In this document: positions 9,998 through 51,926 of the stretch, in pieces
Position numbering within the stretch: the first letter of the stretch is position 1
Layout: every line of letters begins with the position of its first letter
From: an uncultured Enterobacteriaceae bacterium
GTDB taxonomy: Bacteria > Desulfobacterota > Binatia > Bin18
Assembly: GCA_964441775.1 (NCBI GenBank)
Contig: CAYTVL010000005.1
Location: 63,348-127,347 of the forward strand
Direction: 5' to 3'
DNA: 64,000 nucleotides
Made by a program: the position numbers and the translations under genes
The notes under the pieces: model-generated
Told to the model about the DNA's origin: nothing
The model's database searches: none
What the model saw: the letters and a program-made list of their open reading frames with translations, nothing else

Positions 9998-10007
9998 TGT
10001 GGCAGCG

Positions 10008-11003
10008 CTACGAAAACAGATCCCGCATCTCCGGAATGATCCACAAAGGCGCTTGGCCGCGAGCCACGCGCTCGATATTCGCGTAGCCATTGTGAAACCG
10101 TTTATAAAAGCTGTCCACCGTGGGTCCGGCGCTATGCGGGGTCAACGTTACGTTGGGCAGCTTCAACAGCGGATTCTGCGGGTCCGCTGGCTCCTTGGCT
10201 TGCGTATCAAGGCCCGCGCCGAGGAAGCGCCCCTGTTGCAGTGCAGCAATCAAGGCTTGTTCCTCGATAACTTCTCCCCGGCACGTATTAATCACCATGC
10301 TAGTTGGTTTCATGCGGCTGAGGGCGCGGGCGTCGAGCAGGTGACGCGTGCTCTCATTCAGAGGCACGTGCAGGCTTACGATATCGGCGCTCTCAAGCAA
10401 GGTGTCAAAAGACACGTACTGCACCCCCAGTCGCTGTTCCTCTTGCGGGTCGAGGCGGAAGATGTCGTAGTAGATCACCCGCGCATCAAACGCCTGCACG
10501 CGTCGGGCTACTTGCCGACCGATATTGCCGAGCCCTACGAGTCCTACCGTCTTGCCTTCTAATTCAAAGATGTTGACCGTGCGCGGAATCCCTTGGTGCC
10601 AGCGGCCTCCGGCCACGTTCTGATGAAACGCCACCAGTTTCCGATAGACCGCCAACATCAGCAGCACTGCATGCTCGGCGACCGCCACCGAATTCGCTCC
10701 CCCATTGGAGCAGATAGGAATCCGCGCCTTGCGCGCTCCTTCGATGTTGACAAAATCATAACCAGCGCTCAGGACTTGGAGTAGCTTGAGGCGCTTGGCG
10801 TTCGCGTAGGCCTCGTTCGGTAAGAATCGGGGAAAGCCTGTTAAGTATTCAGCATCTTTAATCGCGTCAGCAATATCAGCAGCGCTCGCGTTCGGCGGCA
10901 GCATGTGCAGTGTAAAGCCCGCCGGTTTCATGCGTTGTCCCTGTTCGAGAATGTCGGGCGGCAGCTCGATCCCTTGCGCAAAGACAATAGTCTCCTCAGC
11001 CAT
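10008..11003 (-). CDS. D-isomer specific 2-hydroxyacid dehydrogenase
   Basis: GLVGLGNIG NAD motif, VAEHA, INTCRGEVI, TPHSAG. Confidence 0.92.
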   Translation of the reverse strand: MAEETIVFAQGIELPPDILEQGQRMKPAGFTLHMLPPNASAADIADAIKDAEYLTGFPRFLPNEAYANAKRLKLLQVLSAGYDFVNIEGARKARIPICSNGGANSVAVAEHAVLLMLAVYRKLVAFHQNVAGGRWHQGIPRTVNIFELEGKTVGLVGLGNIGRQVARRVQAFDARVIYYDIFRLDPQEEQRLGVQYVSFDTLLESADIVSLHVPLNESTRHLLDARALSRMKPTSMVINTCRGEVIEEQALIAALQQGRFLGAGLDTQAKEPADPQNPLLKLPNVTLTPHSAGPTVDSFYKRFHNGYANIERVARGQAPLWIIPEMRDLFS

Positions 11004-34720: not shown

Positions 34721-35000
34721 CCACGCTCACCTCCTAATCGGTGACGGTCCATCCCTTTCCAAACCCCGGTGCAGGTCGGCTGCCTTCTCCGGAGTCATAG
34801 CAATTATGTCTCTGGCCTTCGTCGTAGAATGCTCAGTAACTGAAGCTGCTTAGCGGGTTCATCGCGGCGCCGCCGGTTCAGCGCTGTCATAGGAATTATG
34901 ACAACGCCGTCTCGTGCGGCCTTCACCGCTCTTGAGAGAAAGATACTAACAACTTGTTTTGTCAGACATTCTCTCTTCACAAGAGCGTCGCGGCAGACGC

Positions 35001-35014
35001 GGCACGCTTCTTGA
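35001..35014 (+). promoter_or_regulatory. Possible sigma54 (-24/-12) promoter of the cluster
   Basis: GGCACG-CTTC-TTGA has the consensus spacing, with A in place of the -12 C. Confidence 0.35.
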
Positions 35015-35038
35015 TCTCTGTAGTTTCCAAGGCAGAAC

Positions 35039-35590
35039 GTGACTATCAGGAATCGTGAGTTGATGTACCTCCGTCCACAATCTCAGTCACCAAAGATTTA
35101 TTGGGGACAGCTTCCCAAAGGATATGCCGGAACCAGAAAAACTATTGGCTACATCGTCAACTTAGTGAAAGAAGGCGCCAAGGATTTCGGCGTGCGGCAG
35201 ACGGCCATCGATATTCTGTTTCAACTCGGGGTCCGGCCCAAGGATTACCTCGGAGAGATTAGAGCCCTGTTTGAATGGGTGAAAAACAACGTGCGGTATA
35301 CCCGCGATATTCATCGGGTGGAATTGCTGCACACCGCACGGCGGATGCTGGAACTGCGCGCAGGGGACTGTGATGACATGACTATTCTGCTCGGGGCCAT
35401 GCTCAAAGCGATCGGCCACCCAGTGCGGTTGGCGTTGGTCGGGTTCAACCCACGTAAGAAAGCACTGTTCACGCATATCTATCTTGAAGCGTTTTGCAAG
35501 GGAGCGTGGATTCCGCTGGATGCGACAATGAGCAAGCCAATGGGCTGGGCTCCACGCGCTGACCATAAACAGTATTTCCCGGTCGATTAG
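35039..35590 (+). CDS. Transglutaminase-like (papain-fold) Cys-His-Asp enzyme
   Basis: VRYTRD...GDCDDMTILL...FTHIYLEA...WIPLDAT. Confidence 0.85.
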   Translation: MTIRNRELMYLRPQSQSPKIYWGQLPKGYAGTRKTIGYIVNLVKEGAKDFGVRQTAIDILFQLGVRPKDYLGEIRALFEWVKNNVRYTRDIHRVELLHTARRMLELRAGDCDDMTILLGAMLKAIGHPVRLALVGFNPRKKALFTHIYLEAFCKGAWIPLDATMSKPMGWAPRADHKQYFPVD

Positions 35591-35600
35591 GAGGATCACT

Positions 35601-36197
35601 ATGCGTTATGGACCACAGGATGCAACAGACATGATGGGCATCGGGAGTTACGTCGGCGAGGTGCGACGCGGACCCGACGGGCAAGCTTACCAGTGGGTGG
35701 AAGGGGTTGATGGTCTGGGGAACCCTATAGGCTTTTGGAAAGGATTACGAAGCCTTGTGAGCAAGGCTCTCCCCTTAGCCAAAATGATCCCTGGAATCGG
35801 CCCAATCCTCGGCGCCGTGAAACCGTTCTGCCAGTCCCTGCCCCAATTGCAACCAGTGATGGACCAGGCTCCAGGCATTCAGCCCGTCTACCAGTTGGGA
35901 ACGAAAATCTGCAAGGTGCTGGGTAAAGTCGGAATTGCTGGTGCGGAAGGCGAGATCATGGAGGCTCCCGACGGGCAGCTCTACGAAGTTGTCGAAGGCA
36001 TCGGGGAGCCAGGCCAGGCGCGACCATTTCGTCGTCGCGTATGGATCTCGATTCCAGCAGTGATACACCGAGGTCGCGGCCATCGGGGCATGGGTAGACC
36101 AGTGGTGACATCAGCAACACCGGGTCTGGCGCCGGCAGGACCAAGTGTAAGCCCGATGATGACCACGCCAGCCGGTGTGGTCCGCCGCTTCCGCTAG
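35601..36197 (+). CDS. Hypothetical protein with an amphipathic helix and GLG/GIG motifs
   Basis: AGGAGG RBS and tight operon spacing. Internal repeat GPDGQAYQWVEGVDGLG / APDGQLYEVVEGIG. Helix FWKGLRSLVSKAL. Confidence 0.75.
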   Translation: MRYGPQDATDMMGIGSYVGEVRRGPDGQAYQWVEGVDGLGNPIGFWKGLRSLVSKALPLAKMIPGIGPILGAVKPFCQSLPQLQPVMDQAPGIQPVYQLGTKICKVLGKVGIAGAEGEIMEAPDGQLYEVVEGIGEPGQARPFRRRVWISIPAVIHRGRGHRGMGRPVVTSATPGLAPAGPSVSPMMTTPAGVVRRFR

Positions 36198-36206
36198 GAG
36201 CCAAAT

Positions 36207-36500
36207 ATGGCGTGCGCGTGTTCGCAACAACAACACTTCGGTCTAGCGTGCGCGTGTGGCTCGCCCTGCAGATGTGAGAGGACACAGGTGCACATTACCC
36301 ACGTCCAGTCTCTACCGCTGGCGCCGTTGGGCGAGTTACGCGGCGTGATCTACCGCAAACCTGGTCGCCCCGGTGAACCGCCGAAAAATTATGTGCACTT
36401 CTTCGAACGAGCGCCACTGCTAGCAGCCGATTCGATGGGTCGGAGGCTCTTCATTCTTGGCGGCCGCTACCGAGTTACCAAGCGCGGGATTGAAGGATAA
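36207..36500 (+). CDS. Small hypothetical protein (Cys-rich N-terminus; YVHFF...LFILGGRYRVTKRGIEG)
   Basis: AGGAG RBS, tight operon spacing. Confidence 0.75.
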   Translation: MACACSQQQHFGLACACGSPCRCERTQVHITHVQSLPLAPLGELRGVIYRKPGRPGEPPKNYVHFFERAPLLAADSMGRRLFILGGRYRVTKRGIEG

Positions 36501-36511
36501 GGAGACGCCAC

Positions 36512-37201
36512 ATGGCAGGCCATTTCGATGAAATCATGATTGTCAACCCGATTGGCGATAGAGGAGGAAAATATATGCGGTTCTATCGAATCCATTCCCC
36601 ACGCGCTGTCTACTTTGCAGAAGCGCCCGAGCAAATGGGTTATGTGTATGAAGCCCCGGAGATGATGGGCTATTACGGCGAAACGCCCGAGACGGTGGGG
36701 TATGTCTACGAAGCCCCAGAGTCGCTGGGCTACTGCGCCCCACACGGGGTTGGGTATATCGCTGACCCACCGCCTGGCTTCGTTGAAGGCTACGGCTACT
36801 ATGACGAAGCGCCTGAAGTCGGGTACGTCTACGAGGCCCCAGAAACCGTTGGGTACTATGCCGAAGCGCCCGAGTTCGCTGAGGCCCCACAAGACATGGG
36901 CTACTACGCTGAGGCGCCTGAGTTTGCCGAAGCTCCGCAGGACATGGGCTACTATGCTGAGACGCCGGACACGATGGGCTACGGCGAGGCCACGTCAGAC
37001 ATGGGCTATTTCGCCGACTCGGGTCCAGTCGAAGGCTACGTACGTGAGCACGACGACAACCCGCGTGTCGTGCCATTCGAAAACGTCGGTGAAGTAGAAG
37101 GCTATTATCGTCCACGCTCGATCAATCCATCCGTGGATTCGTTTCGTCCAGCAGACGACTCACCCAGACCCGGCAGTAGCTGGTTCAAATCACCCTGGTA
37201 A
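36512..37201 (+). CDS. Acidic Gly-Tyr repeat protein
   Basis: About 14 [MVL]GY/EGY units, including a 16-aa repeat GYYAEAPEFAEAPQDM at 36851, 36899 and 36947 (partial). AAGGAG RBS. Confidence 0.8.
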   Translation: MAGHFDEIMIVNPIGDRGGKYMRFYRIHSPRAVYFAEAPEQMGYVYEAPEMMGYYGETPETVGYVYEAPESLGYCAPHGVGYIADPPPGFVEGYGYYDEAPEVGYVYEAPETVGYYAEAPEFAEAPQDMGYYAEAPEFAEAPQDMGYYAETPDTMGYGEATSDMGYFADSGPVEGYVREHDDNPRVVPFENVGEVEGYYRPRSINPSVDSFRPADDSPRPGSSWFKSPW

Positions 37202-37218: not shown

Positions 37219-38106
37219 ATGGCCGCCGTCAAAGGTATGAAAGAGTTCGTCCATCTGCCGCAGTATGATTCCATCTCCATCAAACCAAAAGAACAACTCG
37301 GCAAGATTCTCAGCTCGAACGTCCTACGGTTCTTCGTCGACGTGACGGGGAAAACCAAACTGCAAACCAACATGCAAGCCTCGTCGTTGCTGCCGCACTG
37401 GAATACCTACGAAGCGCGAGCGATGCGCATAGTGATCTCGGATCTGTCGCCGCAATTCGCTGACAACACGATCCGGCTCAAAGTGGGTGTCGTCGATAAA
37501 AACGGAGTCCCGGTCCTCACAGGTAGTGAGCAAAAGACTGTGGAGCTGGAGAAATTTAAACTGACAAATTTTGTGGACTTCAAACGTGAGGTTGATCCAC
37601 CTTTGGGTAAGACCGTGAGGCTCTCCCAGGACCAGTTAAGTAATCTTGATCTCACTGACAATCAGGAGCTGCTGGGCGCCTGCGAATTTGCCGAGATCAG
37701 TCGTACGACACTGGCGCGCGCTGCCGAACAGTTCGGTAGGAGTGTGATTCCCCCGAATGAGCAACTTCTCGCCAATGGCGATTTCGGTGGGGTGATCGGC
37801 AAATTGATCTATAACACCGTCACTACCTTCTTCGTCGGGGAAAAGAATATGATGCAGGCGCCGACCTGGTTCTTCCCCGCTGGCGCTGGGCCGTTTTCTG
37901 AGGACAGCAGGGTCACAACCCACGGCTATCCGAGCCCACAAGCCACCTTCCAGTTTGCCGAGGCGGTCAAGATTGATGCGCAGCAGAATTTTCGTGTGGA
38001 GATCGAAGTGCCCGAGAGCGACGTGCTCAGCGAACTGCAACGATTGTATGGCCCGCTGTTCATCTGGGTCGTCCTCGATGGCTACATGACGCGCGACGTG
38101 CAGTAG
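37219..38106 (+). CDS. Putative jelly-roll capsid-like protein, family A, copy 1
   Basis: HLPQYDS..FF..GKTKLQTNM..LLP..C-terminal WVVLDGYMTRDVQ. Beta-strand-type periodicity. The CDS is secure; the fold is inference. Confidence 0.6.
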   Translation: MAAVKGMKEFVHLPQYDSISIKPKEQLGKILSSNVLRFFVDVTGKTKLQTNMQASSLLPHWNTYEARAMRIVISDLSPQFADNTIRLKVGVVDKNGVPVLTGSEQKTVELEKFKLTNFVDFKREVDPPLGKTVRLSQDQLSNLDLTDNQELLGACEFAEISRTTLARAAEQFGRSVIPPNEQLLANGDFGGVIGKLIYNTVTTFFVGEKNMMQAPTWFFPAGAGPFSEDSRVTTHGYPSPQATFQFAEAVKIDAQQNFRVEIEVPESDVLSELQRLYGPLFIWVVLDGYMTRDVQ

Positions 38107-38129
38107 CGTAACCAACTTGCTTCCGTGGT

Positions 38130-38153
38130 GAGGGTGGGGCGTGCCCCGCCCTC
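38130..38153 (+). promoter_or_regulatory. Intergenic GC-rich stem-loop without a U-tail
   Basis: GAGGGTGGGGC-GT-GCCCCGCCCTC immediately after 37219..38106. Confidence 0.55.
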
Positions 38154-38194
38154 CGCTTACACATCATTGCCCTGCTCGCAGCGAGGATCGTTGT

Positions 38195-39490
38195 ATGGCG
38201 GTTGTCAAAGGGATCAGAGAGAACGTCCACCTTCCTTTGTACGACTCACTCTTTGTGCGCCCGCAGCAACAACTGCGAGAAGTGAACGGCACGAGCGTCT
38301 TCAAATTCTTCGTACAAGTGCAGGGAAAAACAAAACTGGAAACCAATATGCAGGCCGCCGCACTCCTTCCGCATTGGAACACCTTTGAAGCACGAGCCCT
38401 GCGTGTGGTCATCTCAGATTTGCCGGTCCGCTTTCCGCAGGCAGTGACGCAATGCGTTCTCGAACCACATGGGGGCGGAACCAATACGCCATTCAATACC
38501 CTTACGCACTGCCTTGATGAGCTCGCGCAGGTCATCGCTGGAGAAAAGCATCAGGTTGCTGAACACTTGTTTGCCGCCACGCATCAGTGCGTGACCGAAC
38601 ACCGGGACCTAGTGGAACAAGCGAGGGAGATCACCGAAGACCTTGACGCCTGCCTCGCGGTCTTTACCGCTCTCTGCGACCGGCGCCGCATGGGACAGAT
38701 CCTGCAACTCCATAACGAACTGCGAGCGGCTGCCGGAGACCTGGTCAAGGTCCTCAGCCGCACGCACATTACGATGACGGACCCGCCAGCGGTGAATCGC
38801 TTTCTCAGCACGATTACGGTGCTGGATTGCGCAGAAAACAACGAGCGCCTCTTTGCAAAACTGGAGAAGGCCCAGGCGTGTTTGTACGCATTTCGGCAAC
38901 TGATTGAACTTTTCAAACAGATTTCTCACACCAGTCTTCCAGGAGCCCAGAGTTGTGTCGAGAGTATCGAACAGCTCATTCAGATGGAGGCGAAGCGCGT
39001 TATTTGTCTTGAGCGCGTGCGCGAGTGTTTCCAGAAAGTTCAGACGCAGCTCTCACAGTTGGCGCGGGACGCGCGACACGTCAGCAGCGAAGCCATTCGC
39101 CGCTGCTTGCGGGAGCGTTTACGTAACGAGCTGCTCATTCCTCTTGACGAGCAATTGTTTCCCGGTAGCGTCCAGATTCTCTCGAAACTTATCTATCAGT
39201 CAGTGACGAGCTTGGTGGTCGGCGAAAAGACGATGATGCAGATGCCGACCTGGTTCTTTCCATCCGGGGCTGGTCCGCATGCGGAAGGCAACCAGACGGT
39301 GACGCACGGCTTTCCAATACCGGACGCCACGTTTCATTTCGCCGAGCCGGTCCTCATCGACGCTCAACAGCACTTTCGAGTGGAGATCGAGGTTCCGGAT
39401 GCCACGGCCCTGAGTGAATTACAACGTCTCTATGGCCCGTTATTCATTTGGGTCGTGCTCGACGGTTACCTGCAAAGAGACGTGCAGTAG
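38195..39490 (+). CDS. Putative jelly-roll capsid-like protein, family A, copy 2, with a helical insert of about 235 aa
   Basis: The first 80 aa and last about 117 aa align by eye with 37219..38106 (…WVVLDGYLQRDVQ). Confidence 0.6.
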   Translation: MAVVKGIRENVHLPLYDSLFVRPQQQLREVNGTSVFKFFVQVQGKTKLETNMQAAALLPHWNTFEARALRVVISDLPVRFPQAVTQCVLEPHGGGTNTPFNTLTHCLDELAQVIAGEKHQVAEHLFAATHQCVTEHRDLVEQAREITEDLDACLAVFTALCDRRRMGQILQLHNELRAAAGDLVKVLSRTHITMTDPPAVNRFLSTITVLDCAENNERLFAKLEKAQACLYAFRQLIELFKQISHTSLPGAQSCVESIEQLIQMEAKRVICLERVRECFQKVQTQLSQLARDARHVSSEAIRRCLRERLRNELLIPLDEQLFPGSVQILSKLIYQSVTSLVVGEKTMMQMPTWFFPSGAGPHAEGNQTVTHGFPIPDATFHFAEPVLIDAQQHFRVEIEVPDATALSELQRLYGPLFIWVVLDGYLQRDVQ

Positions 39491-39500
39491 AGGAGACAGT

Positions 39501-40871
39501 ATGAATCGCATCATTCAGGCGAGAGTACCCGAACGTCCCTTGGGGCGCGAACAGCTCCGGGATCTCCCAGCCGTGAGGATCATTCCCTACGATTATGTGG
39601 CGGACTTCAACCTCAGAGGAGAGCCGGGCAATCTCGTGCAAGATGTGATTAACATCAGCGTCGAAGGCGTGTTTGTGGCGGTTTCGATCGGCTATGGCCT
39701 CAATGAAGAGCGCGGGGAGAAGTTAAATTTGCTCTCGCGCAGCCCGACTCCCGCCACTCTGGGCGACATCACGCTCGACCACATTCCTGGGGATGTGTTG
39801 ATCGAAGGTTTTCGCATCAACCCTGAGTTTGATGCACTGGCGATAAAAGACGGCCAATTGAATAGAGAGCTTCCCTTTACGGTCGCAAAAGATATTTTTC
39901 AGCGGCTGAAACAAACTGAGAATTTTAGTTTCCTGCTCAGTATCGTCGATACCGCCAGCGGGCGAGAGCTGCAAAATGAACCGGTGCATAGCGTGGCAAC
40001 GTTGGGGCGCGCGGATGGACAGCGACCCTTCAAGATGCTGCCGCAACCGATGGTGTTCATGCCCCGCTCCACTATTCGTTTACAAATCGAAGAGCGGACC
40101 GCAGGAGTCTCAGGCCACCTCACGATTACCTTGCACGGGTACAAAATCTTGGGCGTTGCCGGACAGCTTGAAGATGCGGTTCGCACGCTTGGTGAGTTTG
40201 ATCCATTCAAGAAGATTCCCGTCTATGACCACGAGACAGGCGACTATCGCCCGATGGGTGAAGCTCTGCAGCGGGACATTCCCACAAGCAAGCTCGTGCC
40301 CTTTGATTATGTCTCCACGTTGGATCTCTTGGGCAAACCCGACACCGTGGTCGATGATGAGGTGCCGATCAATGTAGACGGCGGCTATGTGGCGACAGCA
40401 CTCGGTTATAGCCTCGATGTCGGCGATACGCGGCTGCAAATTGGACTCGCAAACGCAACACAGCCGGAAGTAGATCTGCGAGCCATCACCTTGAAAGACA
40501 TCGCCCCCGCGCAGGCGCTGCTCGACGGCGTTCGGATTCACCCGCTGCGGGTGCGCTTTGCCTTCGCTAGCGATGGTCGCCTGACGCGCGTACCACAAGA
40601 AATGCTGGGTCGCCTGTTTCAAAGTATGAATCTTCCCGAGTCGGTGCGGTTCACTTATGCAATCGCTGACGCCGGCACGGGGCGCGATTTGCAGAATCGA
40701 CCGATCTTCAACGTTGCCGGGTTGGGGATTGCCGATGGCGACCGTCCGTTCCGAATCCTGCATAAGCCGATGATGTTTCTGCCTCGTTCCACCATTCGCG
40801 TGCAGGTGCGCGAGGTGTTTGGCCGTGGGCGACTCTTTGTCGTCTTTCAAGGCTATAAGATTTTGCGATGA
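39501..40871 (+). CDS. Putative jelly-roll protein, family B, with two tandem domains
   Basis: Both halves carry P[YF]DYV...GR[ED]LQN.P...LG.ADG.RPF...PM.F.PRSTIR.Q...GYKIL. Confidence 0.6.
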   Translation: MNRIIQARVPERPLGREQLRDLPAVRIIPYDYVADFNLRGEPGNLVQDVINISVEGVFVAVSIGYGLNEERGEKLNLLSRSPTPATLGDITLDHIPGDVLIEGFRINPEFDALAIKDGQLNRELPFTVAKDIFQRLKQTENFSFLLSIVDTASGRELQNEPVHSVATLGRADGQRPFKMLPQPMVFMPRSTIRLQIEERTAGVSGHLTITLHGYKILGVAGQLEDAVRTLGEFDPFKKIPVYDHETGDYRPMGEALQRDIPTSKLVPFDYVSTLDLLGKPDTVVDDEVPINVDGGYVATALGYSLDVGDTRLQIGLANATQPEVDLRAITLKDIAPAQALLDGVRIHPLRVRFAFASDGRLTRVPQEMLGRLFQSMNLPESVRFTYAIADAGTGRDLQNRPIFNVAGLGIADGDRPFRILHKPMMFLPRSTIRVQVREVFGRGRLFVVFQGYKILR

Positions 40872-42242: not shown

Positions 42243-42248
42243 GTGGTT

Positions 42249-42776
42249 ATGACCAAAGCGCTCACCGACAATTGTTGTAAAATCTGCGGCATTCCGCTTG
42301 ACGCCGAATACTTTGACGTCAGTGGGTTCGTAGGAGGCGGCGTGGCTGTAGATCAATTTAGGAATTTTGATCTGCAATTTCCTCCTCCACTCCCACGCCG
42401 AGGCGAACAAGTGGTGCTCGCAAGTTTTCAACTCCATGCACAATATTGCGGCGTCCTCACCTACTTCTCGCAGTACACGGACCTCTACGTGCGGGACAAC
42501 ACATTGATTCTCACTCCAGGTTTTGAATGGAGCATCCTGCAAAACGGCAAGCCAATGTTTCCCTACACACGCTTGGAAACGATCGTAAACCCCTGGGGCT
42601 ACAACTGCTTGCCAGTCCTCGTGCGACTCGACGAGAACGCGCGCGTTGAATTCGTCTTGAGAAATCGCACTGTCAGTGATTCTCAACTGAACGACTATCC
42701 GATCCGTGCTTTTGCCGGGCGGATCATGGGTCGCTACTGGTACAACGACAGCTTTGGAGGACGAGTGAGGTCATGA
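42249..42776 (+). CDS. Small beta-rich protein, possibly penton/minor capsid-like
   Basis: Alternating hydrophobic strands ending FAGRIMGRYW. Coupled to the neighbouring genes. Confidence 0.45.
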   Translation: MTKALTDNCCKICGIPLDAEYFDVSGFVGGGVAVDQFRNFDLQFPPPLPRRGEQVVLASFQLHAQYCGVLTYFSQYTDLYVRDNTLILTPGFEWSILQNGKPMFPYTRLETIVNPWGYNCLPVLVRLDENARVEFVLRNRTVSDSQLNDYPIRAFAGRIMGRYWYNDSFGGRVRS

Positions 42777-43471
42777 AGCGAATGATCAGAACAGGAGCTG
42801 GACGTCTCTTGCGGGTGCGCCCTGTGCGAGTGTATCCAGTACTCCAATCATACGTGATACAGTCTCCTTTCCCTTCTTATGCGGACATGGCGCCGCCGCG
42901 CACAGGAGACGAGTCCAATGCTTCAAGCAAACCCGCATCCGCGAACACGGAGGAGCCCCCGCCTCAGTCGCAACCGCAGCCAATTCCCAATGGCCAAGCC
43001 TATCGCGTTACTTCACCGTCGGAAGTCAGTCTGGTCACTCCGCAACTCTCACAGACTGTGAGTCAGATTCTAGAGCAGTTTGCCCGGGCGAACGGATTCA
43101 ACGCTAAGCGACCACTGGAGGTCGCCTTCGGTCGCGGCACACTCGGATTGCATCGTTTCCAGCGTGCGGTGGACATCTACGCTGTCGGCGACAAAGGGAT
43201 CGGCGAGTGGGCGCAGACATGGAATGCCGCCATGCGTCAAGCGAACAATGCACCCAATCCGCAGGAGCGCGCCGGCATAGTGACCGGGGAGAAAGCGCGT
43301 AATCTTGGCTACAAACTCTACATCGCTTTACAGAGGTCCGGCGGCTGGGCGCAGCCGCAAGGATATCCCGTGCAGTTGTTCGGGCCGTGGACACGCAGTG
43401 AGGGGCCACACAAGGCCATCTCAGACCGATTGTTACAGGCACATCGCGACCATATTCACGTCGCCAAGTAG
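42773..43471 (+). CDS. Putative peptidase M15-like (LAS) metallopeptidase domain protein
   Basis: H-x6-D (LHRFQRAVDI) and C-terminal HRDHIHV. Pro-rich N-terminus, no signal peptide. Confidence 0.6.
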   Translation: MKRMIRTGAGRLLRVRPVRVYPVLQSYVIQSPFPSYADMAPPRTGDESNASSKPASANTEEPPPQSQPQPIPNGQAYRVTSPSEVSLVTPQLSQTVSQILEQFARANGFNAKRPLEVAFGRGTLGLHRFQRAVDIYAVGDKGIGEWAQTWNAAMRQANNAPNPQERAGIVTGEKARNLGYKLYIALQRSGGWAQPQGYPVQLFGPWTRSEGPHKAISDRLLQAHRDHIHVAK

Positions 43472-43489: not shown

Positions 43490-44131
43490 ATGCGCAACCT
43501 GTACTCGTCTACACTGTATCGCTTCCCATTGTTCGTGAGAGGGAGCACGCAAGGACGGCTTGGGCAATCCGAGCTGACGCCTCGATTCCGTCAACATGGT
43601 GATTTCGTGATTAGAGAATACGAGTGGTGTCCTGAACTACGCAAGATTCGCAGTGATACCTGTGTGGCGTACCAACCAGGAGAGATTGCCACCTCGCGCA
43701 CGGCGGCGGGGCACGTCGCACCCGACGTTGTCTTAGTACCGCCCGGGCCGCTTGGGCCAGCCGTCAAGACCTTATGCCAATACTTAATCATCCGTGATTT
43801 CGGCGTGGATTGGCGTCATGTCAAGCTCGCTACCAAAAGTGAGCCGTTTTTCAAGACTATGTTGACGCAATTCGAAACGAACACGTCGCTGCTCTTCCGG
43901 ATTGTGGGCTACAGTGATTGTGTGGGTTTTGAAAAAAACAATCTTCCGTTGCGGAAAGGCAGGGCCCGCAACGTCTTTCGCCTTCTCGGACCAAGCGCAC
44001 GCTCTCGTGTGATGGCCGTGACCGCGGCCCCACCGAACACGTTTTTGACCGACAATTCGACGATTGCCGCACGGGCCAATAACCGCGCGGTTGTGATCGA
44101 ATTCTTCATGAATCCGCCTCAGACGACGTAG
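43490..44131 (+). CDS. OmpA-like C-terminal (peptidoglycan-binding) domain protein
   Basis: IVGYSDCVG..NN..L...RARNV...DNST...RANNRAVVI. Confidence 0.8.
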   Translation: MRNLYSSTLYRFPLFVRGSTQGRLGQSELTPRFRQHGDFVIREYEWCPELRKIRSDTCVAYQPGEIATSRTAAGHVAPDVVLVPPGPLGPAVKTLCQYLIIRDFGVDWRHVKLATKSEPFFKTMLTQFETNTSLLFRIVGYSDCVGFEKNNLPLRKGRARNVFRLLGPSARSRVMAVTAAPPNTFLTDNSTIAARANNRAVVIEFFMNPPQTT

Positions 44132-44160
44132 GAAGTCAGGAGGCTAGGAGGAGAACCCAC

Positions 44161-45120
44161 ATGTATATCCAGGAAAGCGAAGAGTCAGGGCAACACACGA
44201 CAGCGAGGAACGGAAAGGAACGTGAGAGGTGGCCCTTGGGTGAGCCGTCTCTCACACCTCGAACGTGTAACAACCGCCGCATCCCTCCAAGAGACACCAT
44301 CAGGCCATTCACCTCGAACAAGGTCTTTGGACAATGCGTCAAACGCGGCGTTTTTGGCGTGACCAATCCCGCTGACGTCATTTCAAGAGCGGTCGCCCGC
44401 GCCCTAGAGATGCTCGATAACACGATCGATGAACTGGTGAAGGCGAGGACAGCGGTCTGCGCAGGGAACGCACCGGCGTGGCCCCTCCTCGGTGATATTA
44501 CCGCGGACTGGCTGAAGAACCGGTTGGGGGTCTGTATCGATGACATCCGCGTATGGACGGCTGGGACTTTCGTGAATAGGTCAGTAGCGGAAGTCATCCG
44601 CAGATTGATGCGAGTTCGCAATCTGATCGCGAGCAACGGCATCACGTATGTTTGTCACGGTCCCCTCTGCACTTCCGGCGACTGGGCCTATGTGCTCATC
44701 GATCCTGCCTGCCAGAGCAATGATCCACCGATTATCCGTCTTTGTCGAGATTTTTGGATTCCCGCTGTGCGCGCCGACGGAACACCCGTCCCTTCAGCGG
44801 ACCACGCGGAGTTTCAAGCCCAGACTATTATTCATGAAGCCTCACACCTCTACCACTGTACGAGTGACGCGCGGGGCTCAACCATCGGCGTGGCCGAATG
44901 CTTGGCCCAGTTCGTCGCCGCAACGAACGGGAGTCCGATCGACCCCAATTTTGCTACGAGATGCGCCGTGACCACCCGGTGCGCTCCCGCAGCCGGAGCT
45001 GGACCGGCGGGGGTTTCTGGCTTCGCTCTTGCAAGCCTTGGCGCCACCCGTATCCTCAGAACGCGCTTCCGTCCGCAGGATGCGATCCGGCTCAAAGGAC
45101 GACCAGCCATGCGTGGTTGA
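44161..45120 (+). CDS. M35-like (Lys-specific/aspzincin) HExxH metallopeptidase
   Basis: WAYV...IRLCRDFW...TIIHEASHL...D. Confidence 0.72.
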   Translation: MYIQESEESGQHTTARNGKERERWPLGEPSLTPRTCNNRRIPPRDTIRPFTSNKVFGQCVKRGVFGVTNPADVISRAVARALEMLDNTIDELVKARTAVCAGNAPAWPLLGDITADWLKNRLGVCIDDIRVWTAGTFVNRSVAEVIRRLMRVRNLIASNGITYVCHGPLCTSGDWAYVLIDPACQSNDPPIIRLCRDFWIPAVRADGTPVPSADHAEFQAQTIIHEASHLYHCTSDARGSTIGVAECLAQFVAATNGSPIDPNFATRCAVTTRCAPAAGAGPAGVSGFALASLGATRILRTRFRPQDAIRLKGRPAMRG

Positions 45121-45171
45121 AGAGGAGGGTCTCAACGAGTGACATTTTTCCTCAGCAGGAGGAGGGCCGAC

Positions 45172-46008
45172 ATGTACGTGCGTCTACACGAAGAACTTGG
45201 ACTGGGGTTTGGGAAGCCTCCAGGTCCGAGGTCGCAACTACCGGCGTTACGAAAAAAATTTATTAGCAGTGTTGTTACCTACAAGGATAGTGACGGCCAA
45301 TGTCGATCGACCGATTGCGCGATCTATGTTCCAGAGGTGCTGCGCAACCAGTCGAAGATCAATGTCGTGATCTTCTTCCACGGCCTTGATACCTGCAAAC
45401 CGAAGCACAATTTTGACTCGGTACAAGTCATGAAGAACTTTCGGCTGGACGACCAAGTGGACGCGGCCCCACGCAAAGCAGCGTTGGCTGTGCCGGTTAT
45501 CCTTTGGAAGAAAGAAGATAGAAGCTCCGGCATTATTCGAGCAGCCTGGTCGGCTGCTTATGTGAACGCTTTTGTGGAAGAGGTGCTGCAGCAAATCGGC
45601 CAGTCGTCCCGTGTGCGCCCCAGCCTCGGGCGTCTCATCTTAGCGGGACATTCAGCCGCTTACGACGTTTTGACCCCCCTGGCTGAGCAGTTTGATTGCG
45701 GCGTCGAAGAAACCAGGAAGGGGGCTCTGGCCAAGCTCGATCGAGTGCTGGCCCTGGACACCACCTATCGTCTCCAAGATGCAAAGGCCCTCGAACAATG
45801 GGCGCGCAAACTCGAATCGACCAGACCAGACGTGCAGTTCTGGCTGACGCTGAGTAAGTCGGGCGATCCGCCTAACGTGTGGAAATATTGGGAAAATACG
45901 AGGAAAAAGACGATGGGCAAGGTGGAGCTTCCTGGGAATCTCATGATTAACAACATGCCGGAGGAACATTGTGACCTCCCTGGGAAATATGTCGGCCCCT
46001 ACATTTGA
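45172..46008 (+). CDS. Alpha/beta-hydrolase-like protein
   Basis: VVIFFHG, nucleophile elbow LAGHSAA, ALDTTY, late His (EEHCDLP). Confidence 0.55.
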   Translation: MYVRLHEELGLGFGKPPGPRSQLPALRKKFISSVVTYKDSDGQCRSTDCAIYVPEVLRNQSKINVVIFFHGLDTCKPKHNFDSVQVMKNFRLDDQVDAAPRKAALAVPVILWKKEDRSSGIIRAAWSAAYVNAFVEEVLQQIGQSSRVRPSLGRLILAGHSAAYDVLTPLAEQFDCGVEETRKGALAKLDRVLALDTTYRLQDAKALEQWARKLESTRPDVQFWLTLSKSGDPPNVWKYWENTRKKTMGKVELPGNLMINNMPEEHCDLPGKYVGPYI

Positions 46009-46143
46009 AGCAAAAGCGAATGGAGTCGGAGGAAAGGCGCGCTGAAGCCTCACGGGGGATGATGGAGGATAGAAACATATTCACCTTGAACAAAACAAGT
46101 TGTTTTACGCAACAATAATACGCTGCGTTACGAGAGGAATACT

Positions 46144-46635
46144 ATGGCTACCATTTCTATCACCTCAAACGACGGCGCCCTTAATTCTGCATCTGCTGTC
46201 CTAGAAGTCGCCGCGACAAACCCCGAATACAATCAACCCGCGTTGCGCATCAAACAAGCAGGGAAACACGGGGGCGCAGCCTCGATCAGGATCGATGACC
46301 CGAATCCCGACATCGAGTTGATCGAGACCGATCAAGTGGCTCCGGCAGGAAAGTATGAGATCGCCGTGCAGTCAGACAAGCTCCAAATTAATGGCCGCAA
46401 CGCCACTGATACCGCCTTTGAAACTCTTGTTGTGTTTCAGCGGCGAGCAGCAGGCGGCAATATCGGAATCCGCACGACGAGCCAGTTTGGAGGAGGTCAG
46501 GGAGTGATCGCGATTGCCAATGCTACTGTTGCGCCATCGGTGAATCCCTCTGGCGGTGGGATTTTGTACGTTGAGGATGGAGCGCTCAAGTACCGAGGAG
46601 CAAATGGCACGGTGACAGTGATTGCGCCAGCCTAG
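46144..46635 (+). CDS. Hypothetical beta-rich protein resembling phage fibre/spike modules
   Basis: GNIGIRTTSQFGGGQGVIAIAN...PSGGGILYVEDGALKYRGANGTVTVIAPA. GAGG RBS. Confidence 0.5.
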   Translation: MATISITSNDGALNSASAVLEVAATNPEYNQPALRIKQAGKHGGAASIRIDDPNPDIELIETDQVAPAGKYEIAVQSDKLQINGRNATDTAFETLVVFQRRAAGGNIGIRTTSQFGGGQGVIAIANATVAPSVNPSGGGILYVEDGALKYRGANGTVTVIAPA

Positions 46636-46666
46636 ACCGAAGTCTGCATGAGGGAGGAAACAAATA

Positions 46667-48250
46667 ATGAGCAAAGAAACACAACCCTCTCGTCAAAATG
46701 TCGCTTCTTGTGAACCAGAGAACCTTCCCTTTCTCTGGCCGCTCGGCAAGACCTCAACACCAGATGAGATGAATACGTCCTACGGTCCGCGTATCGACGC
46801 AGATCGCTGGGACTTTCATGACGGCATCGATCTGCCTGCTGCCGTCGGCACGCCGGTCCATGCTATGGCGACGGGCACGGTGCATCGGGCTGGGCCAGCG
46901 GATAAAACCAGGCAGGGGCAAGGTTTCGGTTCAACACACATCCTGCTCCAGATCGTCGATCCAACCGATGGTAAGGATGACTTGTTTCTCGTTTATATCC
47001 ATCTCGACAGCATCGCCGAAGGTGTGATTCCCGGCGCCCATGTAGAGCAGGGTGACGTGCTCGGCGCTGTGGGGCAGGAAGACGCGGAGTATCCGCATCT
47101 CCATTTCGAGTTCAGAAAAGGCAGTCCGAAAGAAGAGAACAGTGTGCACCCGCTGCACTATCTACCCTACATCAACACTGCGAACATCGCGCAGCTCCGT
47201 TTGGATCGCTGTAATTTCTCTGGTGCGCATGGCGAGAAACGCGCAGTAAGGCTTCGCTATGATGTTGCGAATCGGAGAGAAGGCGATGTCCAAGGCGTTG
47301 ATGTAGAGTTGAAGGGCAACGGCGTCGCGCCCCGGCAGCTTCATGTCAACTTTGATGACCGGAAGACCATTGTGAGCGACAAAGGAGACGAACACGAATT
47401 TAACGAGAGCGGAGTTGCCGTGGAAGGTTACCAAAAATCCAATCTCAAGGGTGACGGTTTGTCTGATCTCCACTATGGCGCGATCATCAAGGATATTACG
47501 CCGGAGTTCACGCGCGCGCGGCTCCAGGTCCTGGATGCGAGCAATGGACAGCCGACCATCGCTGAGTTCCCGCTGCCGACACTTGCCGCTAACAAACAGC
47601 CGGTGAACAGTCGCGTAGGTTTTGAGGGTTCCACATTTCCACCAACAGGCTGGGCCTTGCGTCTTCTGTCAGGTAATGTGTGCCAACCAGCTGAAGTTGC
47701 CGCGCTTGCCGGTGTACGCGGCCTGCTCTGTCAGGATCTGCAGAGTCCGCAAGGAGCACTGATCCGTGCCGGGCTCCGCTTCGCTCTGCCTGTTGATCGC
47801 TTGCCTGTCCTCCCTATGTCATGGCGACTGAGGGCAGAGATCCAGCCCGTGGAATTACAGATGAGCAAAGGCCAAGTGATTCATCCGTTAGCGTTCTTGA
47901 ACGGTGACGAGGTGGTGGCCGCCGCTTGCCTGCGGAAAACCAGAGACGACGAGTACATCGCCGGCGTCTTGATTCGCAGCGCAGATGGATTGTTCAGAGA
48001 AAGAATCGATGTGGACGAAGGGGAAATTTTCAGGGACGCCCCGGTCAAGTGGGAACTGGAGTTGCTCAGAATCGGGACCAGGCAAACGACTGCCGTGGTG
48101 CGACTGAACGACAACGTGATCGCTCGCATCAATGGCGACACCACCAGCGTCGAGCCCGACGCCGCGTGCGTAGGCATTTTGCATCGACAGAGCGGGTTAC
48201 AGATCACGCTGCACGTGGATCAATTATTCTTGACGGAAGCGCTGCGATAA
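46667..48250 (+). CDS. M23 family peptidase with C-terminal beta-sandwich domains
   Basis: FHDGIDL (HxxxD), HPHL-type YPHLHFE (HxH), GTPVHAMATGTV. No signal peptide. Confidence 0.85.
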   Translation: MSKETQPSRQNVASCEPENLPFLWPLGKTSTPDEMNTSYGPRIDADRWDFHDGIDLPAAVGTPVHAMATGTVHRAGPADKTRQGQGFGSTHILLQIVDPTDGKDDLFLVYIHLDSIAEGVIPGAHVEQGDVLGAVGQEDAEYPHLHFEFRKGSPKEENSVHPLHYLPYINTANIAQLRLDRCNFSGAHGEKRAVRLRYDVANRREGDVQGVDVELKGNGVAPRQLHVNFDDRKTIVSDKGDEHEFNESGVAVEGYQKSNLKGDGLSDLHYGAIIKDITPEFTRARLQVLDASNGQPTIAEFPLPTLAANKQPVNSRVGFEGSTFPPTGWALRLLSGNVCQPAEVAALAGVRGLLCQDLQSPQGALIRAGLRFALPVDRLPVLPMSWRLRAEIQPVELQMSKGQVIHPLAFLNGDEVVAAACLRKTRDDEYIAGVLIRSADGLFRERIDVDEGEIFRDAPVKWELELLRIGTRQTTAVVRLNDNVIARINGDTTSVEPDAACVGILHRQSGLQITLHVDQLFLTEALR

Positions 48251-48822: not shown

Positions 48823-51606
48823 CTACTTTTTATATTTTTGTAACGTCAGCTCGCCTTTGAGCCGATACAGCTCCGCTGCGAAGAAGCGCCCGCCGGTGCG
48901 CTGTTCCTCAACGAGACATTCTTCGAGCACGGCGAGACCATCTTCAGGATGTCCTGCTCGTCCATACGCCTCTGCCAGGAGTGCGAGATACGAAGGCTGG
49001 GGAGACACAGCGCCTGTTGCTCGCCAAGCAGCGAGACTCTGTCGCATGTGGACGATCCCCGCCGCAGGATCGTGGTGTTCGGCGGACAGCGCCCCGCCAG
49101 ACACTTTCGCCAGGGCTAAGTAGGACGCAAAATTATTCTCCTCTGCGATCGCCTGGAGTTCTTGTTGATGTTGTTGAACCGTGGTCCATTCCTCCAGAAG
49201 CCAATTGGTGACCAACGCTAAATCGAGAGCGTAGACCAAGTTATACGGCTGCCCGAGCTCGCGGGCGCGCCTCAATGCTTCTTGACTTCGTTGTCGCGCC
49301 TGTTCAGGATATCCGAGCAACCACAAAACCGGACCCAGGTGGGCGCAACTCAACACTCCGGCGTCATATTGGAGGCTCATGGAAGGTTGGGACTCATAGT
49401 AGGCTAGGCTTTGCTCCAAATGCTCACGGGCTGCGCCCTGGCGCCCCTGGTAATACAAGGTTAACCCAAGCGCAAAATGGGCCCAGACGGCAAACCGCGG
49501 GGCTTGTAGGGTTGGTGCTAATCGCAGGAGCTGTGTCGCGAGCTCGTGAGCCGTCGTTAACTCTGCTCGTTCTACGGCATGCGCCCAAAGCCCTATCAAT
49601 GTTCTGAAGATCTGCGGCGTCTCTCCCAACTGGCGACACAGCTCGCGACCGCGCGCAAACGCACGCGCCACCTCCAGCGTGCCGAAGCCATGCACCACGG
49701 TCAGCACCTCTCCTAAGGTCAGTTGCAAAGTAAGTTCCTGTTGGCTCTGCTCAGGAGAAGCAGGAAGAAGGGCTAGCAGGGCTAGCCCTTTCGTAGCATG
49801 ATACACGGCCTCGGCATGGGCTGATTGCTGACGGGCATTCTTCGTTGCGTGCTGATAGTACTGCAACGCTTTTGCATAGTCTCGGCCCAGTTCAAAGTGC
49901 ACGGCAAGTTCGGCAGCAATGGCGCTCGCTTGCACGCCATACGCAGCTTCTTTCCGCTCGCCAATCCGCCGATGCAGGTGAATGCGGCGGGCGTCACTAA
50001 GCCGCTCATAGAGCACCTCGGGGTACAACGCGTGCTGGAACATGTAGCATCCCGCCAGTGTTCCATCAGGCCATTCTTGAATGTCTGCAGACCGAATGAG
50101 CCGCTTCTCGCGCGCCAACTCTGCACATGTCGTCTCCACGTTTTCTATCGGTTGGTCTAATCCCGCCGCTACTGCCGCCACGGCGAATTCTTCCCCTACC
50201 ACACTGGCGACTTCCAAAAGGCCTCGCTCTATGGCTGACAGCCGTTCTATCTGCTGGGCAAGCCACTGTCGTAAACTCTCTGGCACCTGATTAGCCAGCA
50301 CACCTATTTCCCCACGGATCCGCCATGCGCCTTGAATCGCCTCGACGACGCCCTCGCTGACGAGATGCTCTACAAGCGTCACCATGAAGAGTGGATTGCC
50401 CTCCGTGCGCTGATGAATCACGCGCGCGAGGTGTTGGGGAGACGTGACGCCGGAAGGTGATGAGAATGTACTTCTCTTCCCATCTCCGCTGCCGTGCGGG
50501 GCTACCATAAAGGAGGCGCACGCCATCAGATACTCAGCCACTGCTTCCTCAGTCAACAATGGCAATGAGAGTTCTCCACACAACCCGTGCAGGTGCAGCT
50601 CGCGCTTGATCGTTAGCAGGGGATGCCCCTTCGCCACGACATCCATCGGGCGGTAGGAGCCGAGCACCAACAATCGCGCTTGCTCTTGTCGCCGTGCGAG
50701 CAAGGCAATGAGTTCTAGTGTCGAGCTATCGCTCCAGTGTAAATCCTCCAAGCGCAGAATAAGCGGTTGTTCAGCCGTCAGCGTACTAATGGCGTCTCCC
50801 ATCTCCCGTAGCATGCGCTCCCGGGTGGAGCCCTCTACTTTGCGTTGCAGAGCTTCCAGGTGCGCCACGCTGAGGAGGGTCGGCATCTGCACTAACCACG
50901 TCGGAGCGTGCTGGTCTAGGAGCAGGATAAGCCGTTCTCCTCCAGGGGCTCTACAGAGCTGCCCGAGCGCTTCCAGTATGGGCATGTAGGCTTCACCTTC
51001 TCCATATTGCTCAATGCAATGTCCATATCCGATCCAAAAATCTTGATCAGAGAGTTGGCGTAAAAACGCATCGAGCAAAGTCGTCTTGCCTATCCCTGGC
51101 TCACCGGTGACGAAGAGCACTTGCCGTTCTCCATTAAGCGCCTGAGCCAAGCGCTCGTGGAGGTGGGCCAGCTCCGCCTCGCGACCAACTAGAGAAGTGC
51201 CCCGTTCCCCGTTCCCCGTTCCACATTGTGGACTTGCCTCCCTTCCCTGCATCCTTTGAACTTGAAACCTGGAACTTGGAGCCGGTTGGGTGGAAATAGG
51301 AGGGAGGAAGCGATACCCTCGCCGATGCACGGTCGCTATGTAACGCGGCTGCCGTGCGTCGTCCCCAAGCACAGAGCGCAACTCGCGAATACAGCTCCGT
51401 AGTACGGTGTCCGTGACGATGGTTTTTGCCCAGACGGTCTCCAGCAGCTCCTCCTGCGTAACAAGCTGCCCGGTGTGCGTCGCCAAGTGACGTAACACCG
51501 CAAAGGTTTTTGGGCGCAGCGGGATCGGCTGATCCTCCCGCCAGAGCTGTTCGTGCGCTAATCCCAGACGAAAAGGACCGAAACACAACCCATCGGAACT
51601 TTCCAT
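48823..51606 (-). CDS. OmpR-type winged-helix + AAA ATPase + TPR regulator
   Basis: FGPFRL..LRPKTFAVL..LRSCIRELR..TVHRRGYRF, Walker A GEPGIGKT, EDLHWSD. Confidence 0.92.
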   Translation of the reverse strand: MESSDGLCFGPFRLGLAHEQLWREDQPIPLRPKTFAVLRHLATHTGQLVTQEELLETVWAKTIVTDTVLRSCIRELRSVLGDDARQPRYIATVHRRGYRFLPPISTQPAPSSRFQVQRMQGREASPQCGTGNGERGTSLVGREAELAHLHERLAQALNGERQVLFVTGEPGIGKTTLLDAFLRQLSDQDFWIGYGHCIEQYGEGEAYMPILEALGQLCRAPGGERLILLLDQHAPTWLVQMPTLLSVAHLEALQRKVEGSTRERMLREMGDAISTLTAEQPLILRLEDLHWSDSSTLELIALLARRQEQARLLVLGSYRPMDVVAKGHPLLTIKRELHLHGLCGELSLPLLTEEAVAEYLMACASFMVAPHGSGDGKRSTFSSPSGVTSPQHLARVIHQRTEGNPLFMVTLVEHLVSEGVVEAIQGAWRIRGEIGVLANQVPESLRQWLAQQIERLSAIERGLLEVASVVGEEFAVAAVAAGLDQPIENVETTCAELAREKRLIRSADIQEWPDGTLAGCYMFQHALYPEVLYERLSDARRIHLHRRIGERKEAAYGVQASAIAAELAVHFELGRDYAKALQYYQHATKNARQQSAHAEAVYHATKGLALLALLPASPEQSQQELTLQLTLGEVLTVVHGFGTLEVARAFARGRELCRQLGETPQIFRTLIGLWAHAVERAELTTAHELATQLLRLAPTLQAPRFAVWAHFALGLTLYYQGRQGAAREHLEQSLAYYESQPSMSLQYDAGVLSCAHLGPVLWLLGYPEQARQRSQEALRRARELGQPYNLVYALDLALVTNWLLEEWTTVQQHQQELQAIAEENNFASYLALAKVSGGALSAEHHDPAAGIVHMRQSLAAWRATGAVSPQPSYLALLAEAYGRAGHPEDGLAVLEECLVEEQRTGGRFFAAELYRLKGELTLQKYKK

Positions 51607-51926
51607 GCCTACTTTCTTAGCAGATGACCAGCCAAATACCACACAAATGCCACAGTTTTGTGACAACTTCTGCCCTTTTCTTTGTTATCTTTCGTGCGTG
51701 AGGCGATAACCTTGGGCGGACGGAATCGCGGGACACGTCTGTTTCTCATGGTGGATTTTCTCAGCTCACTCGGCGCCCTCGCTCGCTTGATGAAGCGATG
51801 CTGATGCGTGCTACGGTGTGGAGTCCCTGCGCCCCGCTTACGTTACAAGGTCTACAGAGCAAGAGAACTTCGGGAACTTGTCCCGATATTCACTTCATAT
51901 TGTTGGCGTCTGCAGGGGGGAAGCTC

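Follow-up and report, generated by a model that had tools for sequence, protein, structure and literature searches.

Why should two neighbouring genes encode proteins that agree closely at both ends and have nothing in common in the middle? This question is raised by a pair of genes, here called A1 and A2 and together representing what we term family A, in a 64,000-nucleotide stretch of contig CAYTVL010000005.1 (positions 63,348 to 127,347 of the forward strand; assembly GCA_964441775.1, deposited as an uncultured Enterobacteriaceae bacterium and assigned by GTDB to the Binatia). We refer to this whole stretch as the window and number positions from its first letter. The original prediction, made by reading the window and its open reading frames (ORFs), had seen in the pair a conserved core with swappable loop domains, as might be expected of a capsomer that displays variable surface modules. 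Our own answer, held tentatively and with a confidence that stops a little short of an even balance, is that A1 and A2 are old tandem paralogues with a split jelly-roll-type core and a further domain in the loop between strands D and E, and that they are subunits of a capsid-like multi-protein assembly. The features of the pair are as follows.

37219 to 38106, plus strand: A1, 295 aa, a member of family A in which the middle is the alpha/beta domain usual for the family (called as an ORF)
37219 to 37458, plus strand: N-terminal core of A1, aa 1-80, 61% identical to A2 1-80, with 82% mean pairwise identity among 119 orthologues
37459 to 37743, plus strand: middle domain of A1, aa 81-175, alpha/beta, insert class 1, unrelated to the middle of A2
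37744 to 38103, plus strand: C-terminal core of A1, aa 176-295, 65% identical to A2 314-431
38195 to 39490, plus strand: A2, 431 aa, a family-A paralogue with a helical middle domain (start taken from homologues)
38435 to 39133, plus strand: middle domain of A2, aa 81-313, a helical bundle or hairpin, insert class 2

First, we demonstrate that A1 and A2 are paralogues with a common core that is split by unrelated middles. In a BLASTP comparison of the pair, residues 1-80 of both proteins align without a gap and are identical at 49 of 80 positions (61%, E 4e-33), and A1 176-295 aligns to A2 314-431 with 78 of 120 positions identical and one two-residue gap (65%, E 3e-54). No alignment was found by BLASTP between these two blocks, which leaves unmatched middles of 95 residues in A1 (81-175) and 233 residues in A2 (81-313). 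The claim that the ends of the two proteins align and their middles differ was thus borne out in every measurable respect. The ORF list gives A2 as 38141 to 39490, the reading frame being open from a GTG at 38141; since all 431-aa homologues begin MAVVKG, the start is probably the ATG at 38195. The family alignment further identifies an invariant stretch, VGEKxMxQxPTWFFPxGAGP, whose columns correspond to residues 206-225 of A1.

Both proteins have many relatives, none of which leads to a described family. We found 2030 homologues of A1, and the best 120 of these 2030 are full-length (58-85% identity, approximately 290-315 aa), while A2 orthologues of 350-437 aa align over their full length at 40-80% identity. 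Homologues of the A1 and A2 types adjoin on the same contigs. Both copies are present in six places (the window and loci L004, L007, L008, L010 and L038 of the set described below), where they are always adjacent and in unchanged order, and all of these places have Blastocatellia or Pyrinomonadaceae affinity except the TARA scaffold L038. A profile search of 1.84 billion representative proteins recovered 258 family-A proteins, about six of them full-length (304-429 aa) and the others fragments; the search returned the family itself only, with no distant relatives. Likewise, A1 and A2 had no match in Pfam, PHROGs, NCBIfam, the PADLOC models or PDB sequences. Homologues of 238 aa were considered as a third, insert-less variant and rejected, as their alignment identified them as N-terminally truncated A2-type fragments. 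Separately, we noted a lone family-A homologue of 334 aa (44% identity) at positions 10001-10948 of locus L032, where the other module genes are absent within 10 kb on either side.

Second, the middles behave very differently from the core in evolution. Among A1-type orthologues, core pairwise identity is 82-86% and that of the middle 35%; among the A2-type orthologues (n=92), the corresponding figures are 73-79% and 32%. Judged by these identities, the inserts evolve much faster than the core. Clustering of the middles of 219 family-A members gave the following groups.

Class 1: A1-like, 80-120 aa, 123 sequences
Class 2: A2-like, helical, 142-228 aa, 77 sequences
Class 3: found in other phyla, 61-142 aa, 18 sequences
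Single form in L026: 40 aa, 1 sequence

By sequence comparison, there are at least three mutually unrelated insert classes, and profile comparison of the classes found no link between them. Detectable homology of classes 1 and 3 was considered and rejected, as hhalign gave E 0.016 for 15 aligned columns. By eye, a strand-helix-strand pattern can be seen in both, and class 3 may have diverged from class 1. The inserts are far from invariant across homologues, with both length and sequence varying between lineages. The core, in turn, is about 65% identical between insert classes, in every pairing, compared with 72-82% within a class. Because each insert class tracks its own core clade, we consider replacements to be rare and old, and since the classes are old and travel with their cores, a shuffling of cassettes does not fit; to describe the domains as swappable was therefore an overstatement. 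Nor is the middle of A1 properly an insert: from its full-length conservation in more than 100 homologues, it is the ordinary middle domain of the family. The Cys-rich helical bundle of A2 is an old replacement that is found only beside a class-1 copy. This bundle holds nine Cys residues, eight of which are kept in 59-88% of the 92 orthologues despite an overall identity of 32%. Of the earlier description of the A2 insert as Cys/His-bearing and helical, the cysteines and the helices stood, but its His residues are not kept, unlike the eight Cys, and are therefore of no weight.

Third, predicted structures suggest where in the fold these domains are placed. The AlphaFold2 model of A1, built from a 63-sequence alignment, has a predicted local distance difference test score (pLDDT) of 81.8 and a predicted template modelling score (pTM) of 0.76; the model of A2 has a pLDDT of 77 and a pTM of 0.52. 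In the A1 model, the core strands before the insert span residues 8-12, 15-21, 35-38 and 63-73, with a helix at 48-55, and those after it span 201-206, 209-215, 244-253, 257-263 and 280-293. Residues 84-183, approximately, form a separately folded alpha/beta domain with a pLDDT mostly above 90, and the sole long low-confidence part is the loop 220-240 (pLDDT about 42), which follows the invariant stretch. The A2 model contains the same core strands, and its middle (82-334) is all-helical and includes one helix of about 94 residues. The insert thus sits between strand 63-73 and strand 201-206 in A1, or 337-342 in A2. In both models, the two conserved ends join into one predicted beta-sandwich, and we infer that this core is an eight-stranded jelly roll with strands B to I and with the variable domain in the D-E loop. 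Here, the lettering of the strands and the direction of the loops follow from strand order and textbook jelly-roll topology: the two-residue turn between strands 201-206 and 209-215 fits the central E-F hairpin, which would place the insert in D-E. The earlier idea of a loop domain was to this extent upheld, as the variable part is modelled as a separately folded domain in one loop. In a jelly roll, the B-C, D-E, F-G and H-I loops are found together at one end, and in capsid proteins whose jelly rolls stand vertically (the Varidnaviria type, with double or single jelly-roll major capsid proteins and pentons) this end points outward; the variable domains of A1 and A2 would then face outward as well.

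Comparison of the A1 model with known and predicted structures points to capsid proteins, at low similarity. Foldseek matches were weak in the PDB (best E 6e-4) as well as in the viral collection BFVD (best E 1e-4), with E values from 1e-4 to 0.1 and template modelling (TM) scores of 0.2-0.45 overall, and nearly all of the best 50 in the PDB were viral jelly-roll capsid proteins, among them the EhV-201 major capsid protein, vaccinia D13, iridovirus, PBCV-1, HHIV-2, SH1, picornavirus VP1 and tymovirus entries. The non-capsid entries among these 50, PNGase F-II and two Cas8-HNH structures, had a probability of at most 0.07, against 0.5 for the capsid proteins, and no TNF or C1q domain was among them. 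Matches in BFVD were also mostly capsid proteins, including the mavirus penton, and no HK97-fold match was obtained with Foldseek for the beta-sandwich models. Because the scores are weak, these results speak for a capsid-type, jelly-roll-like shape only and do not imply homology to capsids. Two of the viral BFVD matches of the A1 model have adjacent accessions, I1ZBH9 (probability 1.0, TM 0.45 on the target) and I1ZBI0. The A2 model matched only generic coiled coils and helical bundles (Tc toxin A shell, SMC proteins and chemoreceptors, E above 3e-3), and a Pfam 'Goodbye' hit in the A2 insert was rejected, as its 18 bits fell below the threshold of 24.8 and reflected helical resemblance only.

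Fourth, family A does not occur by itself. A scan of one genome per species yielded 37 loci in Acidobacteriota (several classes), KSB1, Calditrichaceae, Nitrospiraceae, Polyangiaceae, Phycisphaeraceae, proteobacterial metagenome-assembled genomes and Rhodothermales. The loci define an unnamed ten-gene module, whose carriers live in soil and sediment and belong to at least eight groups of phylum rank. One conserved order, obtained by tblastn and ORF clustering and by an independent gene call, begins with a sigma-54 activator, a small ORF in some loci, a transglutaminase-core protein, a Gly/Pro-rich protein with a basic tail, a small Cys-rich protein and an acidic repeat protein; it continues with A in one or two copies, a double B protein, a single B protein, u177 and u232, which are often followed by a protein of approximately 460 aa, and ends with a variable gene set. 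In the window, the module and the genes that follow it comprise, besides the A pair:

35039 to 35590, plus strand: transglutaminase-core (papain-like) protein, the first module gene, PF01841 (E 8e-12), in 22 loci
35601 to 37201, plus strand: u198, u97 and the acidic repeat protein, three small conserved proteins recognised by synteny
39501 to 40871, plus strand: B1, 456 aa, a tandem duplication of a B unit of about 220 aa
40902 to 42242, plus strand: B2, 446 aa, a single B unit with about 210 aa extra after approximately residue 70
42243 to 43471, plus strand: u177 and u232, the last conserved module genes, recognised by synteny in 19 loci each
43490 to 48250, plus strand: variable downstream genes for an OmpA-like protein, an aspzincin M35-like protein, an esterase-like protein, a 163-aa protein without identity and an M23 peptidase

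The B proteins form a second family in this module. A single B unit matches each half of B1 (hhalign E 9e-61 and 4e-50), and none of the 1073 homologues of B1 is annotated. As for A, searches of Pfam, PHROGs, NCBIfam, PADLOC and PDB sequences returned no relative of B. B2 aligns to a 255-aa orthologue in two blocks (30-68 to 25-63, and 300-440 to 85-240), and the second B gene, as called across loci, encodes 147-478 aa, most often 222-478 aa. This extra stretch and the variable length of the second B protein therefore make B a second module family with a core-plus-insert pattern like that of A. No similarity was found between the B2 insert and the A2 insert.

The small proteins are conserved as well. 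Glycine- and proline-rich u198 has a basic tail and u97 a Cys-rich N-terminus, and the acidic protein (36512-37201) has 229 aa, 41 of which are D or E, with (G)Y(Y/V)xEAPE repeats after a conserved FDE(I/V)MIVNP N-terminus; the DNA at 36850-36966 is a tandem repeat of 48 bp, and the number and sequence of the protein repeats differ between loci. Searches of Pfam, PHROGs and other libraries gave no family match for these three proteins. The same was true of u177 and u232, which had no Pfam match even at E 1. u177 (42243-42776) combines a conserved CxxCGIPxDxxxFD N-terminus with a beta-rich domain of about 140 aa, and the conserved C-terminal half of u232 (42773-43471) holds GLHRFQRAVDIY ... HRDHIHV. 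An assignment of u232 to LAS/M15-type peptidases was rejected, because the likeness to a HxxxxxxD...HxH zinc site was seen by eye only and no Pfam match was obtained at E 1. We also observed an ORF cluster, c4, of approximately 460-500 aa in 21 loci and with no Pfam match, which follows u232 in most loci from L002 to L036; c4 is absent from the window, where the OmpA-like gene takes that position. Defence-system models (PADLOC) gave no match.

Downstream of the module, the variable genes encode, across loci, OmpA-like, VanY, extensin-C/M15-like, trypsin-like, aspzincin, M23 and esterase-like proteins. Hydropathy and N-terminal inspection revealed no signal peptide or membrane segment in the module proteins or in the variable set of the window. 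A short motif recurs at the start of these downstream proteins: 19 ORFs, all downstream of the module and on its strand, begin M(x)Y[LIV][RHQ][LTV]xE, and in several of them FGCGxxCxCxxCR follows. In the window, it is found at 45172, the likely start of the esterase-like gene (MYVRLHEE...), where the copy reads MYVRLHEELGLGFG, and also at 44161 and 48337; elsewhere it is found in loci from L003 to L036. Wall hydrolases and OmpA-like proteins that lack a signal peptide are among the products of these ORFs. The motif may serve for targeting or as a leader.

Fifth, the module seems to be under host-type control, for which two features are relevant.

35000 to 35015, plus strand: sigma-54-type -24/-12 promoter-like site cGGCACGcttcTTGAt, read from the sequence, 24 nt upstream of the first module gene
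51798 to 53339, plus strand: sigma-54 enhancer-binding protein with PAS, AAA+ and HTH_8 domains (Pfam), module-linked in 18 loci

The site in the window departs from the consensus, as an A replaces the C of the -12 GC, and it has two mismatches to the strict sigma-54 consensus. A search of the window with this consensus, allowing at most one mismatch, found one unrelated site only, fewer than expected by chance, and missed 35000-35015. Across loci, a -24/-12 motif is present upstream of the module in 10 of 22 cases, compared with about 0.3 expected by chance (an estimate from the specificity of the regular expression). At the level of the module, both an upstream -24/-12 motif (GG-N10-GC) and an adjacent activator, the marks of a sigma-54-dependent operon, are therefore present, and the module is apparently controlled by sigma-54 and a dedicated activator. 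In addition, two copies of GTCATAGSAATTATGWC lie upstream of cGGCACGcttcTTGAt at 34793-34811 and 34885-34903, 92 nt apart, and the second is located inside a perfect 7+7 inverted repeat, TGTCATA-N5-TATGACA; the two copies are candidate binding sites for the activator at 51798-53339. A large regulator with a Trans_reg_C winged helix, AAA_16 and TPR domains is encoded on the minus strand at 48823-51666, between the module and the sigma-54 activator, and is not conserved beside the module in other loci.

Taken together, we suggest that the constrained core of A1 and A2 makes contacts inside a multi-protein assembly that is encoded by the surrounding module and would comprise the transglutaminase-like protease, the three small proteins, A, the double B, the single B, u177 and u232. 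The D-E domain would project from the distal end of the sandwich, where it would be free, fast-evolving and probably exposed. A1 would keep the usual alpha/beta domain, while in A2 this domain would have been replaced by a helical bundle of approximately 230 residues with conserved cysteines, so that genomes with both copies would build one assembly with two projecting modules. Several observations weigh against such an assembly. The similarity of the A1 model to capsid folds is weak, the module lacks a packaging ATPase and a membrane protein, and the core shows stronger conservation than viral capsid proteins normally do and contains many polar residues that never vary, a pattern that an enzyme or a ligand-binding protein could equally produce. 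Moreover, homology between A and B was considered and not supported (hhalign E 0.009, and 0.12 with larger alignments); the C-terminal pattern F-R..P..I....R.E.E...G.LFI.V..GY that is common to A and B is suggestive only.

The main rival explanation, which we consider less likely and which is kept alive by the unusually high conservation of the core and by the invariant E-F/F-G stretch, is that A1 and A2 are soluble proteins, either binding proteins or enzymes, with a jelly roll or beta-sandwich as in PNGase F, DUF2961 glycosidases, lectins and cupins, and that they form no lattice and serve a sigma-54-controlled pathway of cell-wall or envelope remodelling. In this case, VGEK...PTWFFPxGAGP would be an active or ligand-binding site and the middle domain a specificity or regulatory module. 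The many invariant polar residues of the core would be readily explained, many of the neighbouring genes encode peptidoglycan-directed enzymes, the module is chromosomal and host-regulated, and capsid-related jelly-roll folds are known from cellular enzymes (PMC8812541). PNGase F-II is indeed among the Foldseek matches; however, its probability of at most 0.07 compares poorly with the 0.5 of capsid proteins, and no Pfam, NCBIfam or PDB sequence match links A1 or A2 to any enzyme family. Three to four paralogous beta-rich proteins in a fixed order, including one tandem double unit, look structural rather than metabolic, as do the small Cys-rich, acidic-repeat and basic-tail proteins, and signal peptides are absent although the presumed substrate lies outside the cytoplasm.

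An alternative that we regard as very improbable is a tailless virus of an unknown family, integrated or defective, whose structural genes would make up the module and whose capsid or vertex proteins would be A1 and A2. This would account for the capsid-type fold matches, which include the single jelly-roll proteins of HHIV-2 and SH1, for neighbouring paralogues told apart by an added domain, like the two single jelly-roll capsid proteins of sphaerolipoviruses, VP7 and VP4 (PMC6414509), and for wall hydrolases without signal peptides, which resemble phage lysis enzymes. The genomic context argues otherwise. In the 37 loci, a packaging ATPase, an integrase, a replication gene and a membrane protein are all absent in or beside the module: no packaging ATPase is found among the conserved clusters, where the sigma-54 activator is the only conserved Walker-A protein, nor is there an integrase or replication gene among them or a membrane protein in the module. 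No relatives of A or B were found in IMG/VR or in INPHARED (50,697 phage records), and no PHROG matched A or B. The window contains no tRNA gene, and the module does not differ from its flanks in base composition and is accompanied by a sigma-54 activator and a promoter of host type. The absence of virus genes, the lack of relatives in viral collections and the host-type regulation together make a provirus unlikely. Lastly, the suggestion that A2 is a decaying or non-functional duplicate whose middle is junk that stays open by chance, which has nothing in its favour except the restriction of A2 to a part of the range of family A, deserves practically no credence and is refuted by the conservation of A2: there are 92 full-length orthologues, their cores are 73-79% identical, Cys positions are conserved, and the helical fold of the middle is predicted with confidence.

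We therefore return to the reading of A1 and A2 as subunits of a capsid-like assembly. The proposal that they are capsomers is partly supported: it agrees with the fold type, with where the insert lies along the chain, with the diversity of the inserts and with the set of paralogues, but a viral context is missing. A close parallel is the capsid of the sphaerolipoviruses HCIV-1 and HHIV-2, in which VP7 and the taller VP4 are arranged as heterodimers (PMC6414509). Like A1 and A2, VP7 and VP4, which are vertical single jelly-roll major capsid proteins, are paired small beta-barrel paralogues, and one of the pair bears an extra top domain, the 'tower', while the shared barrel makes the lattice contacts (PMC6414509). 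There are also differences. The VP4 tower is a second, stacked jelly roll, whereas here an alpha/beta domain and a helical bundle occupy a loop; and both A1 and A2 carry an added domain, neither of which is a stacked jelly roll. Furthermore, the packaging ATPase, the internal membrane and the membrane proteins of sphaerolipoviruses have no counterpart in the module, and there is no sequence similarity between the two systems. In the adenovirus penton base, too, an insertion domain is the part that varies between types (PMC3457955), although that protein belongs to a virus with a genome and has no sequence similarity to A. Viruses thus already provide examples of this design principle, in which a variable domain is placed in a loop of a jelly roll, and what appears to be new is the gene family and its non-viral, sigma-54-regulated context.

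To our knowledge, the protein shells known from bacteria are HK97-fold encapsulins, shells made of BMC domains, or small cages. We found no described jelly-roll module of this type in the literature, nor a family, domain or system with these genes, and a 2022 review on how prokaryotes have recruited genes of mobile elements covers HK97-fold shells only and does not mention jelly rolls (PMC8987985). Encapsulins, virus-derived nanocompartments that are chromosomal, host-regulated and genome-free shells, offer a possible functional analogy (PMC8346489, PMC8987985). Their neighbouring cargo genes have a short shared terminal motif, to which the 19 motif-bearing ORFs may be compared; however, encapsulins consist of a single shell protein of the HK97 fold with cargo that is usually redox or iron enzymes, whereas the present module has a predicted jelly roll and is followed by genes for wall hydrolases. 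Tailocins and gene transfer agents, which are domesticated phage modules, likewise combine host-regulated chromosomal virus-like structural genes with lysis-type enzymes, as here (PMC8987985), but they derive from tailed phages and are recognisable as such by sequence, and the module genes match no phage family. On the cellular side, DUF2961 and PNGase F are non-viral bacterial proteins of capsid-like jelly-roll architecture (PMC8812541); these are secreted or periplasmic carbohydrate-active double barrels, in contrast to the multi-paralogue module described here, which has no Pfam match in its A proteins.

A genome-free capsid-like assembly is plausible. A more specific version, which we offer as speculation and hold to be rather improbable, is that the module specifies a genome-free jelly-roll virus-like particle made for the bacterium's own use and carrying wall hydrolases. 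B1, B2, u177 and A1/A2 would then build a capsid-like shell or a vertex complex, from whose outer face the D-E domains of family A would stand out as spikes. Maturation or cross-linking of the particle would fall to the transglutaminase-like protease, the motif-marked wall-degrading enzymes without signal peptides would be its cargo, and the sigma-54 activator would act as the switch.

Finally, the A1/A2 pair provides a natural experiment on which loop of a scaffold tolerates the replacement of a whole domain. Beyond this, the module would represent either a new virus-derived or virus-like assembly or living cellular jelly-roll proteins of the kind proposed as ancestral to capsids (PMC8812541). 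If true, a genome-free particle would be the jelly-roll counterpart of encapsulins and tailocins, or a relic of the cellular ancestors of capsids.

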